NCBI RefSeq assembly: GCF_041886205.1
Contig: NZ_CP169029.1
From: Escherichia coli
GTDB taxonomy: Bacteria; Pseudomonadota; Gammaproteobacteria; Enterobacterales; Enterobacteriaceae
DNA length: 64,000 nucleotides
Reading direction: 5' to 3' (one strand)
Part shown: positions 9,957-19,192 of the stretch, in pieces
How positions within the stretch are numbered: position 1 is the stretch's first letter
Layout: every line of letters starts with the position of its first letter
Notes under the pieces: generated by a model
Told to the model about the DNA's origin: nothing
Seen by the model: only the letters and a program-made list of their open reading frames with translations
Databases searched by the model: none
Translations under genes and position numbers: made by a program

Positions 9957-10233
9957 GTTTTCTCTTCCGCACAAGGTCAGGATTATTCTAAAAATGCGCC
10001 GTTTGCAGGTGAATCGACGCTCAGTCTCAGTATAAGGAAAAGCGCAGCGGACGGGCGAGTAGATTGCGCAACATGCGAGCATGATCCAGAGATTTCTGAA
10101 GCGGCAAAAGGATGTTCCATGTACATGACGCGCGGCTTGCGGTAAATTGTTGGCAAATTTTCCGGCGTAGCCCAAAACGCGCTGTCGTCAAGTCGTTAAG
10201 GGTGTGCCCTTCATCATCCGATCTGGAGTCAAA

Positions 10234-12225
10234 ATGTCCTCACGTAAAGAGCTTGCCAATGCTATTCGTGCGCTGAGCATGGACGCAGTACAGAAAGCCA
10301 AATCCGGTCACCCGGGTGCCCCTATGGGTATGGCTGACATTGCCGAAGTCCTGTGGCGTGATTTCCTGAAACACAACCCGCAGAATCCGTCCTGGGCTGA
10401 CCGTGACCGCTTCGTGCTGTCCAACGGCCACGGCTCCATGCTGATCTACAGCCTGCTGCACCTCACCGGTTATGATCTGCCGATGGAAGAACTGAAAAAC
10501 TTCCGTCAGCTGCACTCTAAAACTCCGGGCCACCCGGAAGTGGGTTACACCGCTGGTGTGGAAACCACCACCGGTCCGCTGGGTCAGGGTATTGCCAACG
10601 CAGTCGGTATGGCGATTGCAGAAAAAACGCTGGCGGCGCAGTTTAACCGTCCGGGCCACGACATTGTCGACCACTACACCTACGCCTTCATGGGCGACGG
10701 CTGCATGATGGAAGGCATCTCCCACGAAGTTTGCTCTCTGGCGGGTACGCTGAAGCTGGGTAAACTGATTGCATTCTACGATGACAACGGTATTTCTATC
10801 GATGGTCACGTTGAAGGCTGGTTCACCGACGACACCGCAATGCGTTTCGAAGCTTACGGCTGGCACGTTATTCGCGACATCGACGGTCATGACGCGGCAT
10901 CCATCAAACGCGCAGTTGAAGAAGCGCGCGCAGTGACTGACAAACCGTCCCTGCTGATGTGCAAAACCATCATCGGTTTCGGTTCCCCGAACAAAGCCGG
11001 TACCCACGACTCCCACGGTGCGCCGCTGGGCGACGCTGAAATTGCCCTGACCCGCGAACAGCTGGGCTGGAAATACGCGCCGTTCGAAATCCCGTCTGAA
11101 ATCTATGCTCAGTGGGATGCGAAAGAAGTAGGCCAGGCGAAAGAATCTGCATGGAATGAGAAGTTTGCGGCTTACGCGAAAGCTTATCCGCAGGAAGCGG
11201 CTGAATTTACCCGCCGTATGAAAGGCGAAATGCCGTCTGACTTCGACGCCAAAGCGAAAGAGTTTATCGCTAAACTGCAGGCTAATCCGGCGAAAATCGC
11301 CAGCCGTAAAGCGTCTCAGAATGCTATCGAAGCTTTCGGTCCGCTGTTGCCGGAATTCCTCGGCGGTTCTGCTGACCTGGCACCATCTAACCTGACCCTG
11401 TGGTCTGGTTCTAAAGCAATCAACGAAGATGCTGCGGGTAACTACATCCACTACGGTGTTCGCGAGTTCGGTATGACCGCGATTGCTAACGGTATCTCCC
11501 TGCACGGTGGTTTCCTGCCGTACACCTCCACCTTCCTGATGTTCGTGGAATACGCACGTAACGCCGTACGTATGGCTGCGCTGATGAAACAGCGTCAGGT
11601 GATGGTTTACACCCACGACTCCATCGGTCTGGGCGAAGATGGCCCGACTCACCAGCCGGTAGAGCAGGTCGCTTCTCTGCGCGTAACCCCGAACATGTCT
11701 ACATGGCGTCCGTGTGACCAGGTTGAATCCGCGGTCGCGTGGAAATACGGTGTTGAGCGTCAGGACGGCCCGACTGCGCTGATCCTCTCCCGTCAGAACC
11801 TGGCGCAGCAGGAACGAACTGAAGAGCAACTGGCAAACATCGCGCGCGGTGGTTATGTGCTGAAAGACTGCGCCGGTCAGCCGGAACTGATTTTCATCGC
11901 TACCGGTTCAGAAGTTGAATTGGCGGTTGCTGCCTACGAAAAACTGACTGCTGAAGGCGTGAAAGCGCGCGTGGTGTCCATGCCGTCTACCGACGCATTT
12001 GACAAGCAGGATGCTGCTTACCGTGAATCCGTACTGCCGAAAGCGGTTACTGCACGCGTTGCTGTAGAAGCGGGTATTGCTGACTACTGGTACAAGTATG
12101 TTGGCCTGAACGGTGCTATCGTCGGTATGACCACCTTCGGTGAATCTGCTCCGGCAGAGCTGCTGTTTGAAGAGTTCGGCTTCACTGTTGATAACGTTGT
12201 TGCGAAAGCAAAAGCGCTGCTGTAA
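10234..12225 (+). CDS. tktA: Transketolase 1, 663 aa
   Basis: ORF track 10204..12225; ATG at 10234 gives [41 protein letters not shown]; TPP-binding motifs. Confidence 0.97.
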
Positions 12226-12240
12226 TTAGCATTTCGGGTA

Positions 12241-12267
12241 AAAAGGTCGCTTCGGCGACCTTTTTTA
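12241..12267 (+). terminator. Rho-independent terminator of tktA
   Basis: aaaaggtcgc-ttcg-gcgacc followed by ttttttatt, 16 bp after the tktA stop. Confidence 0.85.
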
Positions 12268-12386
12268 TTGCCTTGATATGTCCGTTTGCGGACAGGCAAT
12301 AGGTAAATAGTGATGTGTATCGCAAATATTTATATGAAATAAATATTAACTATGTAATGCGTATCACAATATGCATATTGACATTT

Positions 12387-12409
12387 ATTTTTATATCCAT
12401 AAATAACTG
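12387..12409. promoter_or_regulatory. Perfect 10-bp inverted repeat (ccataaataa-ctg-ttatttatgg), candidate operator in the cmt operon promoter region
   Basis: Seen directly in sequence about 125 bp upstream of the cmtB ATG in an AT-rich promoter region; function inferred. Confidence 0.35.
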
Positions 12410-12533
12410 TTATTTATGGAATTAATAATTCATTGTTTTTAAAGCATCGATTTCCTCGCTGGATTGCTTTCATTAAACCGCACGAGTATTTTATTTTTAC
12501 CGCCGGACAGTACCCTAAAAATAAGGATAATTT

Positions 12534-12977
12534 ATGCGGCTTAGTGATTATTTTCCAGAATCATCAATCTCAGTTATATATTCAGCAAAAGATTGGCAGG
12601 AAGCTATCGATTTCTCGATGGTATCATTGCTGGATAAAAACTATATCAGCGAGAATTACATTCAGGCAATTAAAGATTCCACCATTAACAATGGCCCTTA
12701 TTATATTCTCGCACCAGGCGTGGCAATGCCTCATGCGCGACCGGAATGTGGGGCGCTTAAAACCGGGATGTCTTTGACATTACTTGAACAAGGTGTTTAT
12801 TTTCCGGGGAATGACGAACCAATTAAATTACTCATCGGACTCTCTGCTGCCGATGCCGATTCGCACATTGGCGCTATTCAGGCGTTAAGTGAATTACTGT
12901 GCGAAGAAGAAATACTCGAACAACTCTTAACAGCATCATCAGAAAAACAATTAGCGGACATTATCAGCCGCGGATAA
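12534..12977 (+). CDS. cmtB: PTS mannitol-type EIIA component (cryptic), 147 aa
   Basis: ORF track 12534..12977; PTS EIIA(Mtl/Ntr-type) fold, conserved His (VAMPHAR). Confidence 0.93.
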   Translation: MRLSDYFPESSISVIYSAKDWQEAIDFSMVSLLDKNYISENYIQAIKDSTINNGPYYILAPGVAMPHARPECGALKTGMSLTLLEQGVYFPGNDEPIKLLIGLSAADADSHIGAIQALSELLCEEEILEQLLTASSEKQLADIISRG

Positions 12978-13004
12978 TTACTCTCTCCTCTACAGGATAA
13001 TATT

Positions 13005-14393
13005 ATGGAAAACAAGTCTGCTCGTGCAAAGGTCCAGGCTTTTGGGGGCTTTTTGACTGCAATGGTCATCCCCAATATTGGTGCTTTTATTGCCTGGGGT
13101 TTTATTACTGCGTTATTTATTCCCACCGGTTGGCTGCCTAACGAACATTTCGCCAAAATTGTCGGCCCGATGATTACCTATTTATTGCCCGTGATGATTG
13201 GTTCTACCGGTGGTCATCTGGTCGGCGGTAAACGCGGCGCGGTCATGGGCGGAATAGGTACTATTGGTGTGATCGTCGGCGCAGAGATCCCGATGTTCCT
13301 TGGCTCAATGATTATGGGGCCGCTCGGTGGGCTGGTCATAAAATATGTTGATAAGGCACTGGAAAAACGCATACCTGCCGGTTTTGAGATGGTTATCAAT
13401 AACTTCTCATTAGGTATCGCGGGGATGCTCCTTTGTCTGCTGGGTTTTGAAGTGATCGGCCCGGCGGTGTTAATTGCCAATACTTTCGTCAAAGAGTGTA
13501 TTGAGGCGCTGGTACATGCGGGTTATCTGCCTCTGCTGTCAGTCATCAATGAACCGGCGAAAGTGCTTTTCCTTAATAATGCGATCGATCAGGGCGTCTA
13601 TTATCCGCTGGGAATGCAACAGGCTTCGGTTAACGGCAAATCCATCTTCTTTATGGTGGCCTCTAACCCAGGTCCGGGCCTGGGGCTGCTGCTGGCGTTT
13701 ACCTTGTTTGGTAAAGGGATGAGTAAACGTTCTGCGCCAGGGGCGATGATTATTCACTTCCTCGGTAGGATCCACGAACTGTATTTCCCGTATGTGCTGA
13801 TGAAGCCGCTGACCATTATTGCCATGATTGCGGGCGGTATGTCTGGCACCTGGATGTTTAACTTACTGGACGGTGGTCTGGTGGCTGGCCCAAGTCCGGG
13901 GTCTATCTTTGCTTACCTGGCACTGACGCCGAAAGGTTCGTTCCTGGCGACAATTGCCGGTGTTACGGTAGGTACCCTGGTGTCCTTTGCTATCACTTCG
14001 CTGATACTGAAGATGGAAAAAACGGTGGAAACGGAGAGCGAAGATGAGTTTGCTCAGTCAGCCAATGCGGTTAAGGCGATGAAACAAGAGGGTGCATTCT
14101 CGTTAAGTCGGGTTAAGCGTATCGCCTTTGTTTGCGATGCGGGGATGGGCTCCAGTGCGATGGGCGCGACCACCTTCCGTAAACGCCTGGAAAAAGCGGG
14201 GCTGGCAATTGAAGTAAAACATTACGCCATAGAAAACGTGCCTGCGGATGCGGATATCGTCGTTACTCATGCCAGTCTGGAAGGGCGCGTGAAACGTGTG
14301 ACGGATAAACCACTGATATTGATTAGTAACTATATTGGCGATCCAAAACTCGACACTTTATTTAATCAATTAACCGCCGAACATAAACACTGA
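13005..14393 (+). CDS. cmtA: PTS mannitol-type EIICB component (cryptic), 462 aa
   Basis: ORF track 13005..14393; polytopic EIIC followed by EIIB domain with the phosphorylatable Cys (FVCDAGMGSSAMG). Confidence 0.93.
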   Translation: MENKSARAKVQAFGGFLTAMVIPNIGAFIAWGFITALFIPTGWLPNEHFAKIVGPMITYLLPVMIGSTGGHLVGGKRGAVMGGIGTIGVIVGAEIPMFLGSMIMGPLGGLVIKYVDKALEKRIPAGFEMVINNFSLGIAGMLLCLLGFEVIGPAVLIANTFVKECIEALVHAGYLPLLSVINEPAKVLFLNNAIDQGVYYPLGMQQASVNGKSIFFMVASNPGPGLGLLLAFTLFGKGMSKRSAPGAMIIHFLGRIHELYFPYVLMKPLTIIAMIAGGMSGTWMFNLLDGGLVAGPSPGSIFAYLALTPKGSFLATIAGVTVGTLVSFAITSLILKMEKTVETESEDEFAQSANAVKAMKQEGAFSLSRVKRIAFVCDAGMGSSAMGATTFRKRLEKAGLAIEVKHYAIENVPADADIVVTHASLEGRVKRVTDKPLILISNYIGDPKLDTLFNQLTAEHKH

Positions 14394-14407
14394 TTACAGA
14401 GGTAAAA

Positions 14408-15685
14408 ATGAAAACCAAAGTTGCTGCTATTTATGGCAAGCGGGATGTCCGTCTGCGCGAATTTGAACTGCCAGAAATTACCGATAATGAACTTTTGGTG
14501 AGTGTAATTTCTGACAGTGTCTGTTTATCCACCTGGAAAGCGGCGTTACTCGGTAGTGAACATAAACGCGTACCCGACGATTTAGAAAATCATCCGGTCA
14601 TTACCGGGCATGAATGTGCCGGGGTTATTGTCGAAGTGGGTAAAAATCTCACTGGCAAATATAAAAAAGGCCAGCGTTTTGTATTGCAACCGGCGATGGG
14701 GTTACCAAGCGGATATTCAGCGGGCTACAGCTACGAATATTTTGGCGGTAACGCCACCTATATGATTATTCCCGAGATCGCCATTAATTTGGGCTGCGTA
14801 TTACCGTATCACGGCTCTTATTTTGCTGCGGCGTCGCTGGCAGAGCCTATGTGCTGCATTATTGGCGCTTATCATGCCAATTATCACACCACGCAATATG
14901 TTTATGAGCATCACATGGGCGTCAAACCTGGCGGCAATATTGCACTGCTGGCGTGTGCAGGTCCGATGGGCATTGGCGCTATCGATTACGCCATTAACGG
15001 CGGCATACAACCGTCGCGGGTGGTGGTGGTCGATATCGACGACAAACGTCTGGCGCAGGTACAGAAGCTGCTGCCGGTGGAACTGGCGGCCAGTAAAGGC
15101 ATTGAGCTGGTGTATGTGAATACCAAAGGGATGAGTGATCCTGTCCAGATGCTGCGGGCGCTGACAGGAGATGCCGGGTTCGATGACATTTTTGTTTATG
15201 CGGCGGTGCCTGCTGTCGTTGAGATGGCTGATGAATTACTGGCGGAAGATGGCTGTCTGAACTTCTTTGCCGGGCCGACGGATAAAAACTTCAAAGTGCC
15301 GTTTAATTTCTACAACGTCCATTACAACAGCACGCACGTAGTCGGTACATCCGGCGGTTCAACGGACGACATGAAAGAGGCGATTGCCCTTAGCGCCACA
15401 GGACAGTTACAGCCGTCGTTTATGGTGACCCATATTGGTGGCCTGGATGCGGTGCCAGAAACCGTGCTCAATCTGCCGGATATCCCTGGCGGTAAAAAAC
15501 TCATTTATAACGGCGTGACCATGCCGCTCACTGCCATTGCCGATTTTGCCGAAAAAGGCAAAACCGATCCGCTGTTTAAAGAGCTGGCGCGGCTGGTTGA
15601 GGAAACGCACGGCATCTGGAATGAACAGGCCGAGAAATATCTGCTGGCACAATTTGGCGTTGATATTGGGGAGGCCGCGCAATGA
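14408..15685 (+). CDS. yggP: Zn-dependent medium-chain polyol dehydrogenase-like protein, 425 aa
   Basis: ORF track 14408..15685; MDR/alcohol dehydrogenase-like catalytic and Rossmann regions; the stop overlaps the yggF start. Confidence 0.9.
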   Translation: MKTKVAAIYGKRDVRLREFELPEITDNELLVSVISDSVCLSTWKAALLGSEHKRVPDDLENHPVITGHECAGVIVEVGKNLTGKYKKGQRFVLQPAMGLPSGYSAGYSYEYFGGNATYMIIPEIAINLGCVLPYHGSYFAAASLAEPMCCIIGAYHANYHTTQYVYEHHMGVKPGGNIALLACAGPMGIGAIDYAINGGIQPSRVVVVDIDDKRLAQVQKLLPVELAASKGIELVYVNTKGMSDPVQMLRALTGDAGFDDIFVYAAVPAVVEMADELLAEDGCLNFFAGPTDKNFKVPFNFYNVHYNSTHVVGTSGGSTDDMKEAIALSATGQLQPSFMVTHIGGLDAVPETVLNLPDIPGGKKLIYNGVTMPLTAIADFAEKGKTDPLFKELARLVEETHGIWNEQAEKYLLAQFGVDIGEAAQ

Positions 15686-16647
15686 TGTCCCTGGCGTGGC
15701 CATTATTTCGCGTTACGGAACAGGCAGCGTTGGCTGCCTGGCCGCAAACCGGATGTGGCGACAAAAATAAAATTGATGGCCTGGCGGTCACCGCGATGCG
15801 ACAGGCATTAAACGACGTCGCTTTTCGTGGACGAGTGGTTATCGGCGAAGGAGAAATTGACCATGCGCCGATGCTGTGGATTGGCGAAGAGGTGGGCAAA
15901 GGCGATGGGCCAGAAGTCGATATCGCGGTTGACCCGATTGAAGGCACGCGGATGGTAGCGATGGGGCAGAGCAATGCGCTGGCGGTCATGGCTTTCGCCC
16001 CTCGAGATAGCCTGTTACATGCGCCCGATATGTATATGAAAAAGCTGGTTGTTAATCGACTGGCGGCGGGCGCGATTGATCTGTCTTTGCCTCTGGCGGA
16101 CAACTTGCGCAACGTGGCGCGGGCGTTAGGCAAACCGCTGGACAAGCTGCGCATGGTTACGCTGGATAAACCGCGCCTGAGTGCCGCGATTGAAGAAGCA
16201 ACACAGCTGGGCGTGAAGGTTTTCGCTCTGCCGGATGGCGATGTCGCCGCCAGCGTGCTGACCTGCTGGCAGGATAATCCTTACGATGTGATGTACACCA
16301 TCGGCGGTGCGCCAGAAGGCGTGATTTCTGCCTGTGCCGTTAAAGCATTAGGCGGGGATATGCAGGCCGAGCTGATTGACTTTTGCCAGGCTAAAGGGGA
16401 TTACACGGAAAATCGGCAGATTGCAGAGCAGGAGCGCAAGCGTTGCAAGGCAATGGGCGTTGACGTTAACCGTGTGTACTCGCTCGATGAACTGGTGAGG
16501 GGGAACGATATCCTCTTTAGCGCTACGGGCGTGACGGGCGGTGAGCTGGTGAACGGTATCCAACAGACGGCGAATGGGGTGCGGACGCAGACATTACTGA
16601 TCGGCGGCGCGGACCAAACGTGTAATATAATAGACTCCCTGCATTGA
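15682..16647 (+). CDS. yggF: Class II (GlpX-type) fructose-1,6-bisphosphatase paralog, 321 aa
   Basis: ORF track 15682..16647; GlpX-family sequence (IDGLAVTAMRQALN...GEGEIDHAPML...). Confidence 0.9.
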   Translation: MMSLAWPLFRVTEQAALAAWPQTGCGDKNKIDGLAVTAMRQALNDVAFRGRVVIGEGEIDHAPMLWIGEEVGKGDGPEVDIAVDPIEGTRMVAMGQSNALAVMAFAPRDSLLHAPDMYMKKLVVNRLAAGAIDLSLPLADNLRNVARALGKPLDKLRMVTLDKPRLSAAIEEATQLGVKVFALPDGDVAASVLTCWQDNPYDVMYTIGGAPEGVISACAVKALGGDMQAELIDFCQAKGDYTENRQIAEQERKRCKAMGVDVNRVYSLDELVRGNDILFSATGVTGGELVNGIQQTANGVRTQTLLIGGADQTCNIIDSLH

Positions 16648-16668
16648 TGGTGATCTATCGGAAGACCA

Positions 16669-17178
16669 ATGGCGACGCTGACAGAAGATGATGTGCTTGA
16701 GCAACTGGATGCACAGGACAATTTATTTTCATTTATGAAAACTGCGCATTCTATTTTGCTCCAGGGGATACGCCAGTTTCTGCCGTCGCTGTTTGTCGAT
16801 AACGATGAAGAGATCGTCGAATATGCAGTGAAGCCGTTACTCGCCCAAAGCGGCCCGCTTGACGATATTGATGTTGCACTGCGTTTGATTTATGCGCTGG
16901 GGAAAATGGATAAATGGCTGTACGCCGATATCACGCATTTTTCCCAGTTCTGGCATTACCTGAACGAACAGGATGAAGCGCCCGGATTTGCCGATGACAT
17001 GACCTGGGATTTTATCAGCAACGTCAATAGCATAACCTGCAATGCGACGCTCTATGACGCGTTGAAAGCGATGAAATTCGCCGATTTCGCCGTCTGGTCA
17101 GAGGCGCGTTTTAGCGGGATGGTCAAAACGGCGCTGACGCTGGCAGTAACGACCACCTTAAAGGAATTAACGCCGTGA
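16669..17178 (+). CDS. yggD: MtlR-like regulator (mannitol operon repressor family), 169 aa
   Basis: ORF track 16669..17178; small acidic helical protein in the cmt/ygg operon. Confidence 0.88.
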   Translation: MATLTEDDVLEQLDAQDNLFSFMKTAHSILLQGIRQFLPSLFVDNDEEIVEYAVKPLLAQSGPLDDIDVALRLIYALGKMDKWLYADITHFSQFWHYLNEQDEAPGFADDMTWDFISNVNSITCNATLYDALKAMKFADFAVWSEARFSGMVKTALTLAVTTTLKELTP

Positions 17179-17888
17179 AAATTGAATTAACGGTGAATGG
17201 GCTGAAGATACAGGCACAGTACCAGAACGAAGAGATAGAAAATGTACATAAACCGTTGCTGCGCATGTTGGCGGCCTTACAGACGGTAAATCCGCAGCGG
17301 CGTACGGTGGTTTTTCTTTGCGCTCCGCCGGGGACGGGTAAATCAACCCTAACCACCTTCTGGGAATATCTCGCGCAACAAGACCCGGAGCTGCCCGCTA
17401 TACAGACGCTGCCGATGGATGGTTTTCACCATTACAATAGCTGGCTGGATGCGCATCAATTGCGCCCCTTCAAAGGCGCTCCAGAGACATTTGACGTTGC
17501 GAAACTGGCGGAAAATCTGCGCCAGGTCGTGGAAGGGGATTGTACGTGGCCGCAGTACGATCGACAAAAGCATGATCCTGTTGAAGATGCGTTGCACGTT
17601 ACCGCACCACTCGTCATCGTCGAAGGAAACTGGCTATTACTGGATGATGAAAAGTGGCAGGAGTTGGCATCTTTCTGCGATTTTTCTATTTTTATTCATG
17701 CACCTGCTCAAATTCTGCGGGAGCGCTTGATTAGTCGTAAAATTGCGGGAGGATTATCGCGGCAAGCAGCCGAAGCATTTTATGCCCGAACCGATGGCCC
17801 CAATGTCGAGCGTGTGCTGATGAATAGCCGTCAGGCCAATCTGATAGTAGAGATGACTGAAGAAGGCCGGTATCACTTCACAAGCTGA
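17175..17888 (+). CDS. yggC: P-loop NTPase / putative nucleoside-sugar kinase, 237 aa
   Basis: ORF track 17175..17888, GTG start overlapping the yggD stop; Walker A motif CAPPGTGKST. Confidence 0.88.
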   Translation: MKIELTVNGLKIQAQYQNEEIENVHKPLLRMLAALQTVNPQRRTVVFLCAPPGTGKSTLTTFWEYLAQQDPELPAIQTLPMDGFHHYNSWLDAHQLRPFKGAPETFDVAKLAENLRQVVEGDCTWPQYDRQKHDPVEDALHVTAPLVIVEGNWLLLDDEKWQELASFCDFSIFIHAPAQILRERLISRKIAGGLSRQAAEAFYARTDGPNVERVLMNSRQANLIVEMTEEGRYHFTS

Positions 17889-18172
17889 CAATTTATTCCA
17901 GTTATTGCAGGGTTATTATTACGCCAGCCTGGAATAAAGCTTCCCACAAAAGGGGATAAAAGTGTGATGTGAGTCAGATAAATGTCTTCTTCGGCTGGAC
18001 AAACATTCCTTTTATTCCACGTTTCGCTTATCCTAGCTGAAGCGTTTCAGTCGATTAAATGTTCGACAATTAACCAATCAGTCGCAGTTTGCGACAGGTA
18101 AGGTTTCCCCGGACGATTTGCTGGATTACTCTGTCTGGCAAATTTGCTCAGGGAAAACCTTGCAGGAGATCT

Positions 18173-19192
18173 ATGACCGTACGCGTAGCGATAAATGGCT
18201 TCGGTCGCATCGGGCGTAATGTGGTTCGTGCTTTGTATGAATCCGGACGCCGGGCGGAAATTACCGTGGTGGCAATCAACGAACTGGCGGATGCTGCGGG
18301 CATGGCGCATTTGTTGAAATATGACACCAGCCATGGCCGTTTTGCATGGGAAGTACGACAGGAACGCGATCAACTTTTTGTTGGTGATGACGCCATCCGC
18401 GTATTGCATGAACGTTCACTGCAATCGCTCCCCTGGCGTGAACTTGGCGTTGATGTAGTCCTCGACTGCACCGGCGTATATGGCTCCCGCGAGCATGGCG
18501 AAGCGCATATTGCCGCCGGGGCCAAAAAAGTGCTCTTTTCACATCCTGGCAGTAACGATCTCGACGCGACCGTTGTTTACGGCGTCAATCAGGATCAACT
18601 TCGTGCGGAACACCGCATCGTTTCTAACGCTTCCTGTACCACGAATTGCATAATTCCCGTCATCAAATTGTTAGATGATGCGTACGGTATTGAGTCCGGC
18701 ACTGTGACCACAATTCACTCCGCCATGCACGATCAACAGGTTATTGATGCATACCATCCTGACCTGCGTCGCACCCGGGCAGCCAGCCAGTCGATCATTC
18801 CGGTCGATACTAAACTGGCCGCCGGTATCACACGATTTTTTCCGCAATTTAACGATCGCTTTGAAGCGATTGCGGTACGTGTGCCAACCATAAATGTGAC
18901 GGCAATCGATTTAAGCGTGACGGTGAAGAAACCTGTAAAAGCCAATGAAGTCAACCTGTTGCTGCAAAAAGCAGCACAAGGTGCATTTCATGGTATAGTT
19001 GACTATACGGAATTGCCGTTGGTCTCTGTAGATTTTAACCACGATCCGCACAGTGCCATTGTCGATGGCACCCAAACCCGGGTCAGTGGCGCACACCTGA
19101 TCAAAACGTTGGTCTGGTGCGATAACGAATGGGGCTTTGCTAACCGAATGCTCGACACGACGTTAGCTATGGCTACTGTTGCTTTCAGGTAA
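18173..19192 (+). CDS. epd: D-erythrose-4-phosphate dehydrogenase, 339 aa
   Basis: ORF track 18089..19192; ATG at 18173 gives [21 protein letters not shown]; GAPDH-family with catalytic SCTTNC. Confidence 0.95.

Follow-up and report, generated by a model that had tools for sequence, protein, structure and literature searches.

The window analysed here, the whole 64,000-nucleotide stretch of Escherichia coli contig NZ_CP169029.1, carries the operon cmtB-cmtA-yggP-yggF-yggD-yggC (cmtBA-yggPFDC), which was described about thirty years ago, has been called 'cryptic' ever since its genes were first described, and is among the few carbohydrate operons of E. coli K-12 still without a substrate. We consider it slightly better than an even bet that the six genes form one CRP-dependent operon for the uptake, through the phosphotransferase system (PTS), and catabolism of a mannitol-like polyol by a SorE-type pathway, with YggD as its anti-activator. 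The operon was already known and annotated; what is new is the pathway logic supplied by YggP together with YggC, and the case for 'fumarase E' (YggD) as an MtlR-type regulator on a conserved 44-bp pair of CRP sites.

In the pathway that we propose, CmtB (IIA) and CmtA (IICB) would take up the polyol and phosphorylate its terminal carbon, as suggested by their domains and conserved phosphorylation sites. YggP would oxidise the carbon beside the phosphorylated one, a step read from homology and gene context, to give a ketose-1-phosphate as opposed to the ketose-6-phosphate made by MtlD. YggC would add a second phosphate, yielding a ketose-1,n-bisphosphate (fructose-1,6-bisphosphate (FBP) or a close analogue) which a class II aldolase would cleave. 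YggF, or elsewhere a PHP phosphatase or a reversible pyrophosphate-dependent phosphofructokinase (PPi-PFK), would act as an accessory, converting some of the bisphosphate back into ketose monophosphate for use in biosynthesis. All steps after uptake are ones that we infer, apart from the fructose-1,6-bisphosphatase (FBPase) activity of YggF, which is published with in vitro kinetics (Brown et al. 2009, as cited in PMC8719807). YggD would dock on two CRP dimers 44 bp apart upstream of cmtB and block CRP-dependent activation, and would be freed from the promoter once it is captured, during transport, by the dephosphorylated CmtA IIB domain.

An initial annotation of this DNA, made from the sequence alone, had listed the six genes with the span of the block and the two overlaps; the open reading frame (ORF) list agrees with it exactly and puts all six on the plus strand. 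The packing it described as tight is indeed so: the junctions measure, in order, 27, 14, -4, 21 and -4 bases, and the two 4-base overlaps (15682-15685 and 17175-17178) are of the ATGA and GTGA types. Scanning 12100-18300 for terminators and promoters gave counts within shuffle expectation and no internal terminator, and the gene order is kept in 20 Enterobacterales loci. Spacing, absence of above-chance internal terminators and cross-genus order together argue for a single operon. Pfam and NCBIfam assign to the products, in order, EIIA_2; EIIC and IIB; ADH_N and ADH_zinc_N; FBPase_glpX; MtlR; and a PanK/Udk-family P-loop kinase domain, in line with the roles first given (EIIA, EIICB, zinc-dependent dehydrogenase, class II FBPase, MtlR-like protein and P-loop kinase).

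YggP aligns over 98% of its length with the annotated SorE of Klebsiella, whose gene is part of a sorCDFBAME-type operon (417 positions aligned at 45.8% identity, E = 8e-132). SorE reduces L-sorbose-1-phosphate to D-sorbitol-6-phosphate (PMC12817954), so the keto carbon of this pair adjoins the phosphorylated carbon. Relatives of YggP at 55-68% identity are found in Vibrionaceae, Lachnospiraceae, Clostridium and Alkalibacterium, and relatives occur even in metagenome bins of Spirochaetes and Lentisphaeria. The family alignment shows no variation at C39, H68 and E69, and we take this Cys/His/Glu triad to be of the kind that binds the catalytic zinc in this enzyme family. Because no SrlD/SorD-like gene is present in any of the 56 YggC-linked YggP loci, and because the PTS there is of the mannitol class, we regard YggP as a SorE paralogue and not an orthologue. 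The keto-sugar phosphate foreseen by the initial annotation is thereby narrowed to a predicted ketose-1-phosphate in need of a second phosphorylation. The terms 'mannitol-1-phosphate 2-dehydrogenase' and 'fructose-1-phosphate reductase' were absent from the literature searched.

To place YggP in context, we ran a scan that found relatives of it in at least 570 species-representative genomes, and examined the 80 best-scoring loci; ORFs were called in 81 loci with a crude ORF finder and clustered, and the neighbours of YggP were tabulated. YggC is the partner most tightly linked to YggP: it stands beside YggP in 56 loci, and in 50 of the 56 PTS-linked loci. It never occurs together with 1-phosphofructokinase (1-PFK), which is present in six loci (TIGR03828 equivalog, 334-338 bits against a cut-off of 292). 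A bisphosphate-forming role for YggC is suggested by this obligate linkage, as well as by the presence of 1-PFK in its place in a sister clade. Clostridium ljungdahlii illustrates the replacement, with the order mtlA, PRD-domain regulator (of the Gram-positive MtlR type) and mtlF, and with mtlD replaced by 1-PFK and a YggP homologue; the simplest reading of this locus is a route from mannitol-1-phosphate through fructose-1-phosphate to FBP. The initial annotation left the kinase without a role in the pathway.

The bisphosphatase fares differently. No locus has more than one of YggF (20 loci), a YcdX-like PHP phosphatase (14) and PPi-PFK (3), and in 13 of the 50 loci all three are missing; the bisphosphatase thus appears accessory and dispensable, which speaks against its earlier casting as the entry into glycolysis. 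The order is IIA-IICB-YggP-YggF-YggD-YggC in Enterobacterales, the same without YggF in Rahnella and Budvicia, and with the PHP phosphatase in the place of YggF in Vibrionaceae. Clostridia and Alkalibacterium have a PRD regulator with IIA-YggC-IICB-YggP, sometimes accompanied by PPi-PFK and split transketolase genes, and Anaerostipes has a DeoR regulator, YggC-YggP and an FBP-type class II aldolase (TIGR01859, 394 against 343). In this comparison, the CmtA-YggP-YggC trio travels together in Enterobacterales, Vibrionaceae and Clostridia, and the bisphosphatase slot varies.

Several of these loci hold further genes. PPi-PFK, recognised by its GGNDS and PKSIDND signatures (NF010675, 529 bits), occurs in five loci altogether, three of them Clostridia YggC modules (L002, L035 and L044) and two SrlD-linked (L061 and L074). 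Split transketolase genes follow the operon in L038 and L044. In the Rahnella loci L023 and L024 (approximately 10000-17800), a cmt-like operon lacking yggF is followed by one ORF and then by mtlA-mtlD-mtlR. A Clostridia sister clade of YggP (L058, L061, L063, L067, L071, L074, L075, L079, L080, L082 and L083) lies beside a sorbitol-6-phosphate dehydrogenase-like short-chain dehydrogenase (SDR), a DeoR regulator and the full set of E1, E2 and E3 genes for a 2-oxoacid dehydrogenase complex, to which some loci add LipA/LipB (three loci) or a 436-amino-acid (aa) PHP protein; we know of no described pathway that explains this cluster.

In YggC, the Walker A motif APPGxGKST has A50, P52, G55, K56 and T58 invariant and P51 at least 90% conserved, and NF006742 matches at 507 bits (cut-off 402). 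Its AlphaFold2 model (predicted local distance difference test score, pLDDT, 96.4) has 3c8u, PanK and uridine-cytidine kinase as top Foldseek matches; as modelled, the fold is confirmed, without a clue to the substrate. What these matches (the FrcK-like protein 3c8u, type I pantothenate kinase and uridine-cytidine kinase) have in common is phosphorylation of a primary hydroxyl group; YggC had been predicted in 2011, as work in progress, to be a 'sugar/polyol kinase'. YggF scores 586 bits with TIGR00330 (cut-off 259) and 405 bits with PF03320, and its PDB matches include 1ni9 (E = 2e-111), 3roj and 5a5l; its deletion reduces growth in fermentative glycerol use (PMC8719807).

The transporter resembles the mannitol permease, and here the identity of the substrate has to be weighed. 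EIIC, IIB and the separate EIIA_2 domain are matched by PF02378, PF02302 and PF00359 at 94, 50 and 102 bits, respectively. CmtA Cys377 sits in the IIB loop CDAGMGSSAMGA (residues 376-387), which is identical to the loop around MtlA Cys384, and CmtB His67 aligns with the MtlA phosphorylation site His554; a PDB search with the CmtA IIC domain matched IIB-domain structures only. We posited that the operon might be a second, silent D-mannitol system, redundant with mtlADR and repressed in the laboratory, in which YggP would oxidise C2 of mannitol-1-phosphate to give fructose-1-phosphate, YggC would make FBP and YggF would give fructose-6-phosphate. CmtA scores above the mannitol-IIC cut-off of TIGR00851 mtlA (476.9 against 468.4) and is 52% identical to MtlA, although it falls just short of the IICBA model NF011663 (588.8 against 589). 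Firmicutes CmtA-type transporters are closer to E. coli CmtA (median identity 61%) than to MtlA (50.5%), and CmtA-type transporters form, at the level of sequence, a cross-phylum group distinct from MtlA; together with the linkage of CmtA, YggP and YggC across phyla, this argues for a coherent module that moved across phyla. The mannitol-type operon of Clostridia, with 1-PFK and a YggP homologue in place of mtlD, favours mannitol, as do the FBP-aldolase type of the Anaerostipes module-linked enzyme and the way in which FBPase and PPi-PFK suit glycolytic entry at FBP. Against this, the YggC-linked YggP clade is separate from the 1-PFK-linked one, and Rahnella keeps cmt-like and mtl operons side by side. 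To our knowledge, mtlA mutants show no growth on mannitol. Mannitol-induced antibiotic tolerance requires mtlA and not cmtA, and the text of a 2025 promoter study does not give mannitol as an inducer of cmtA (PMC12412646). We therefore regard a plain mannitol system as unlikely, though not to be dismissed lightly.

In that promoter study, a cmtA promoter fusion to green fluorescent protein (GFP) was exposed to 198 Biolog carbon sources, and the best response was to uridine, with other nucleosides, as a general CRP effect (PMC12412646). None of the searchable literature names a substrate, so the statement of the initial annotation that none is established still holds. Given the resemblance of YggC to uridine kinase, a specific link to uridine was considered and rejected: 14 of 18 transporter promoters, cmt included, respond alike, and the link is further weakened by the failure of ribose and uracil to induce the cmtA promoter (PMC12412646).

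The second part of the case concerns YggD, for which the MtlR-like assignment of the initial annotation holds against the RefSeq name 'fumarase E'. YggD matches PF05068 at 177.5 bits, and its Pfam and NCBIfam matches are to MtlR-family models only, with none in those databases to a fumarase/aspartase or Fe-S hydrolyase family, so that any fumarase activity would belong to an unrelated fold. PDB 3c8g is nearly identical to YggD in sequence and 6kcr (MtlR) matches at E = 7e-13. Across the loci examined, none has both an MtlR-like protein (38 loci) and a PRD regulator (19 loci), and every PTS-linked locus but one has either. MtlR, which like YggD has no DNA-binding domain, docks on two CRP dimers spaced 43-46 bp apart (optimum 44-45 bp), contacts CRP through R167 and L178, reads the spacing of the CRP sites and not the DNA sequence, and is released by sequestration on the dephosphorylated IIB domain of MtlA (PMC13421365; Lee et al., NAR, July 2026). 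That study found the mtl operator alone among 331 CRP-regulated units with such spacing, and YggD and cmt go unmentioned in it. YggD is only 28% identical to MtlR overall; the equivalents of the two contact residues, R147 and L158, are invariant in 41 of 41 YggD-like proteins and are the only two of the 16 invariant positions that lie in the C-terminal half.

Upstream of cmtB we found two CRP-like sites 44 bp apart, the only such pair at 43-46 bp in the window. A 44-45 bp pair is present in 23 of 24 Enterobacterales cmt-type loci at three mismatches or fewer (shuffle mean 0.6, maximum 3) and in 14 of 24 at two or fewer (shuffle mean 0.007), counts that come from a simple mismatch rule, shuffles that kept base composition only and promoters related by descent as opposed to independent samples. 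Other spacing bins are not enriched, the spacer sequences between the sites are not conserved, and the same scan, as a positive control, finds the five sites of the mtlA operator with spacings of 43, 44, 73 and 44 bp. In Vibrionaceae, the 45-bp pair is clear in one locus only. The cmtB promoter is activated by CRP in two reporter studies, with lacZ and GFP fusions (PMC3105977, PMC12412646), and chromatin immunoprecipitation with exonuclease treatment (ChIP-exo) of YggD gave no peaks (PMC8464067), a result that fits a protein reaching DNA only through CRP. The site pair, the contact residues, the regulator slot and the empty ChIP-exo make YggD a strong candidate for a second CRP-anchored anti-activator, which would be a regulator of the operon and not primarily a fumarase. 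Since MtlR reads spacing, it may also repress the cmtB promoter, which would help to explain the 'cryptic' look of the operon. The identical IIB loops of CmtA and MtlA mean that MtlR and YggD could each be sequestered by either transporter, a form of regulatory cross-talk.

A more sceptical account denies any single pathway: YggD would be a true fumarase (FumE), YggF a back-up gluconeogenic FBPase and CmtAB a leaky transporter, their clustering being meaningless. Each part of it has some footing, in that YggD is described in PMC8464067 as 'verified as fumarase E', with fumarase activity reported in vitro and without DNA binding by ChIP-exo, yggF deletion cuts growth on fermentative glycerol, and cmtA deletion raises the minimum inhibitory concentration (MIC) of tobramycin while cmtAB overexpression increases aminoglycoside uptake. 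It has to contend with a gene order held across genera with overlapping stops and starts, with the linkage of the CmtA-YggP-YggC trio across phyla, and with a YggD that matches the MtlR family and no fumarase domain, excludes PRD regulators and keeps the CRP-contact residues; the empty ChIP-exo is itself expected if DNA is reached through CRP. We judge this account decidedly improbable.

Besides the limits attached above to the CRP-site counts and to Vibrionaceae, several points weigh against a CRP-dependent polyol operon with a SorE-type pathway. The description of YggD as a verified fumarase is one, and the dependence of mannitol-induced tolerance on mtlA but not cmtA another. No polyol was reported as an inducer of the cmtA promoter among the 198 carbon sources (PMC12412646). 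E. coli ΔsorE cannot use sorbose and is not rescued by YggP (PMC12817954), which is therefore no substitute for SorE. In a neighbour-joining tree, the 1-PFK-linked and SrlD-linked SorE-like homologues are grouped in a clade sister to YggC-linked YggP and do not branch from within it, so the kinase swap may mean a different intermediate and not equal function; the swap informs on pathway logic but does not identify the intermediate. As E. coli has FruK, YggC would be redundant if the intermediate were fructose-1-phosphate. The activities given to YggP and YggC in this pathway are, moreover, predictions.

Taken together, these data point towards a substrate other than plain mannitol, a relative giving a ketose with the D-threo configuration at C3-C4 that FBP-type aldolases accept. 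The conservative reading is a hexitol yielding fructose-1-phosphate. A pentitol route through a pentulose-1,5-bisphosphate was set aside as unlikely, by reasoning only: a quarter of the loci have no phosphatase, and there is no aldolase route for the product. More speculatively, CmtA-YggP-YggC could be a cross-phylum pathway for a polyol other than a standard hexitol, with a heptitol such as volemitol or perseitol the most attractive, proceeding through sedoheptulose-1-phosphate and sedoheptulose-1,7-bisphosphate and silenced by YggD and MtlR through promoter geometry and not sequence; we rate this general proposal a long shot.

The specific version, in which the substrate is a heptitol with a mannitol-like end, we hold to be a shade less probable again. 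YggP would convert heptitol-1-phosphate to sedoheptulose-1-phosphate and YggC would make the 1,7-bisphosphate, which would either pass as sedoheptulose-7-phosphate (through YggF, the PHP phosphatase or PPi-PFK) to transketolase or be split by a class II aldolase into dihydroxyacetone phosphate and erythrose-4-phosphate. Such a route would call for a kinase distinct from FruK, in agreement with the separate clade of YggC-linked YggP, and the GlpX family includes dual FBPase/sedoheptulose-bisphosphatases (3roj and 5a5l among the YggF matches). The split transketolase genes (L038 and L044) and the five PPi-PFK loci, three of them with YggC, fit as well, although the support is wholly circumstantial and the Firmicutes transketolase link comprises two loci. 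In E. coli, as in three Vibrio loci, tkt is the immediate upstream neighbour, which can be read the same way; the cmt operon may nonetheless merely be inserted in a tkt-epd-pgk-fba block, which is a common gammaproteobacterial arrangement. Biolog plates are not known to us to contain heptitols, and their absence would explain the negative inducer screen. Volemitol is reported from brown algae and avocado; a bacterial heptitol pathway did not turn up in the one literature search that included the term 'volemitol'.

Whatever its substrate, the mannitol-like polyol operon that we favour is maintained. Of 5426 complete E. coli genomes, 5425 (99.98%) carry it, and 5387 have at least 80% of it in one piece. 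All six genes are intact in the window and in K-12, where their products show 97-99.6% amino-acid identity. The ratio of non-synonymous to synonymous substitution rates (dN/dS), calculated by the Nei-Gojobori method against E. albertii, Citrobacter, Salmonella arizonae, Superficieibacter, Buttiauxella and Enterobacter, is 0.02-0.19 across the six genes, similar to tkt, epd and pgk; cmtA and yggP, at 0.02-0.06, are under the same constraint as these three. Purifying selection and near-universal presence imply that 'cryptic' refers to the substrate and the inducer and does not mean decaying. A decaying remnant with no present function would account for the label, for the lack of a known growth phenotype and for Salmonella Weltevreden, which carries the cluster and grows on mannitol like other serovars; set against the sequence constraint, an active CRP-dependent promoter and a phenotype of cmtA deletion, we give it next to no credence.

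Two variants of the locus were noted in E. coli. Only seven genomes are at least 99% identical to the window, and we considered whether the window itself carries a divergent allele; this was rejected, as the stretch is 98% identical to K-12 and the odd allele is that of strain SCPM-O-B-8794. At the operon ends, the window and SCPM-O-B-8794 thus represent two clearly different E. coli alleles (CmtB 88.4% and YggC 93.7% identity), and synonymous divergence (dS) is 0.45-0.51 there but 0.09-0.22 in tkt and pgk on either side, a pattern suggestive of recombination or of import of an allele. Among the E. coli protein clusters is one of 671 aa in which a PTS EIIC domain is fused to the YggP dehydrogenase; presumably the 14-base cmtA-yggP junction is read through or frameshifted in some strain.

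Table 1. Features of the cmt locus, in window coordinates.
Feature	Position	Strand	Sequence	Description and basis
Terminator-like hairpin after tkt	12245-12268	+	GGTCGC-TTCG-GCGACC	Followed by a T run; read from the sequence
CRP-like site 1	12309-12324		AGTGATGTGTATCGCA	2 mismatches to TGTGA-N6-TCACA
CRP-like site 2	12353-12368		TGTAATGCGTATCACA	1 mismatch to TGTGA-N6-TCACA; 44 bp from site 1
cmtB	12534-12977	+		PTS EIIA, 147 aa; ORF list, Pfam/NCBIfam, 6EVA annotation
cmtA	13005-14393	+		PTS EIICB, 462 aa; Pfam/NCBIfam, 52% identity to MtlA
yggP	14408-15685	+		Zn-dependent medium-chain dehydrogenase, 425 aa; full-length SorE paralogue, 46% identity
Sigma-54 binding motif	14928-14944	+	CTGGCGGCAATATTGCA	Inside yggP; identical to K-12 ChIP-seq site IS35, which lies 744 bp upstream of yggF
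yggF	15682-16647	+		Class II (GlpX-type) fructose-1,6-bisphosphatase paralogue, 321 aa; start overlaps yggP stop by 4 bases
yggD (RefSeq fumE)	16669-17178	+		MtlR-family HEPN-fold protein, 169 aa
yggC	17175-17888	+		P-loop small-molecule kinase, PRK/PanK/Udk family, 237 aa; GTG start, 4-base overlap with yggD stop
yggC-epd intergenic region	17889-18172	+		No convincing intrinsic terminator

The operon (Table 1) is flanked by tkt upstream and epd-pgk-fbaA downstream in the annotation of E. coli strain 6EVA, whose sequence is 100% identical to the window and in which the genes are named cmtB, cmtA, yggP, 'glpX' (the yggF orthologue), fumE (yggD) and yggC; the RefSeq/PGAP 'glpX' at 15682-16647 is the name of a paralogue and not of yggF. 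The hairpin after tkt is the upstream boundary of the cmt transcription unit. As no clear terminator was found between yggC and epd, read-through into epd-pgk-fbaA is possible; this gap contains an inverted repeat, TTATTCCAG...CTGGAATAA, at approximately 17895-17934, with no T run after it. The adjacency of epd-pgk-fbaA, pointed out in the initial annotation, is kept only in a subset of Enterobacteriaceae and is thus weak evidence for functional coupling, and in the loci compared neither tkt nor epd-pgk-fbaA is a conserved partner of the module outside E. coli. No Rfam family matched 11800-18400 at E up to 0.1. The sigma-54 motif inside yggP was rejected as a conserved internal promoter, since synonymous changes destroy it in every genus except Escherichia, and it is probably incidental.

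The comparative data narrow the question to three points: the phosphate ester formed by YggP, the target of YggC and the docking of YggD on CRP. If the speculative pathway for a non-standard polyol such as a heptitol is correct, YggC would be the first kinase of the PanK/Udk fold to act on a sugar phosphate, and the position of a phosphate would be shifted by three interchangeable enzymes, namely YggF, PPi-PFK and the PHP phosphatase. The promoter result would make YggD a second natural example of the CRP-anchored regulation first published in 2026. The module extends beyond E. coli to other Enterobacterales, Vibrionaceae and gut Clostridia among the best 80 of at least 570 loci. As CmtAB adds to aminoglycoside uptake, derepression of the operon is also of some applied interest.

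One of the closest known systems is E. coli mtlADR. Both have a mannitol-subfamily PTS transporter with an identical IIB active-site loop, an MtlR-family regulator encoded towards the 3' end (by the last gene of mtlADR and the fifth of the six cmt genes) and CRP dependence with tandem CRP sites 43-45 bp apart. They differ in that the IIA of cmt is a separate protein, CmtB, whereas MtlA is IICBA; in that cmt lacks the mannitol-1-phosphate 5-dehydrogenase MtlD and has instead an unrelated SorE-family zinc-dependent dehydrogenase, with a kinase and a bisphosphatase added; and in that cmt is not needed for the mannitol phenotype tested. MtlR-CRP anti-activation (PMC13421365) is paralleled in YggD by the same Pfam family and fold and by the CRP-contact residues, and in cmt by the 44-45 bp CRP pair and the IIB loop; set against these, the two regulators share 28% identity and docking of YggD on CRP is a prediction. 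The sorCDFBAME operon of Klebsiella and E. coli offers the full-length homologue of YggP, likewise linked to a PTS and to a phosphorylated hexitol/ketose pair. Its PTS, by contrast, is of the mannose class (IIA, IIB, IIC, IID), and SorE runs reductively, followed by an SDR dehydrogenase (SorD, sorbitol-6-phosphate dehydrogenase), whereas the YggP clade has a kinase. With fruBKA, cmt would share the logic of converting a ketose-1-phosphate to a 1,6-bisphosphate, although YggC has the PanK/Udk/PRK P-loop fold and FruK the PfkB ribokinase fold. The closest relatives of YggC are FrcK of Sinorhizobium meliloti and PDB 3c8u, a 'fructose transport system kinase' (E = 4e-22; Foldseek E = 1e-18, target-normalised TM-score 0.87), and their genes too adjoin a sugar transporter; FrcK, whose substrate PMC10433430 leaves open, is not the fructokinase and, unlike YggC, is linked to an ATP-binding cassette transporter.

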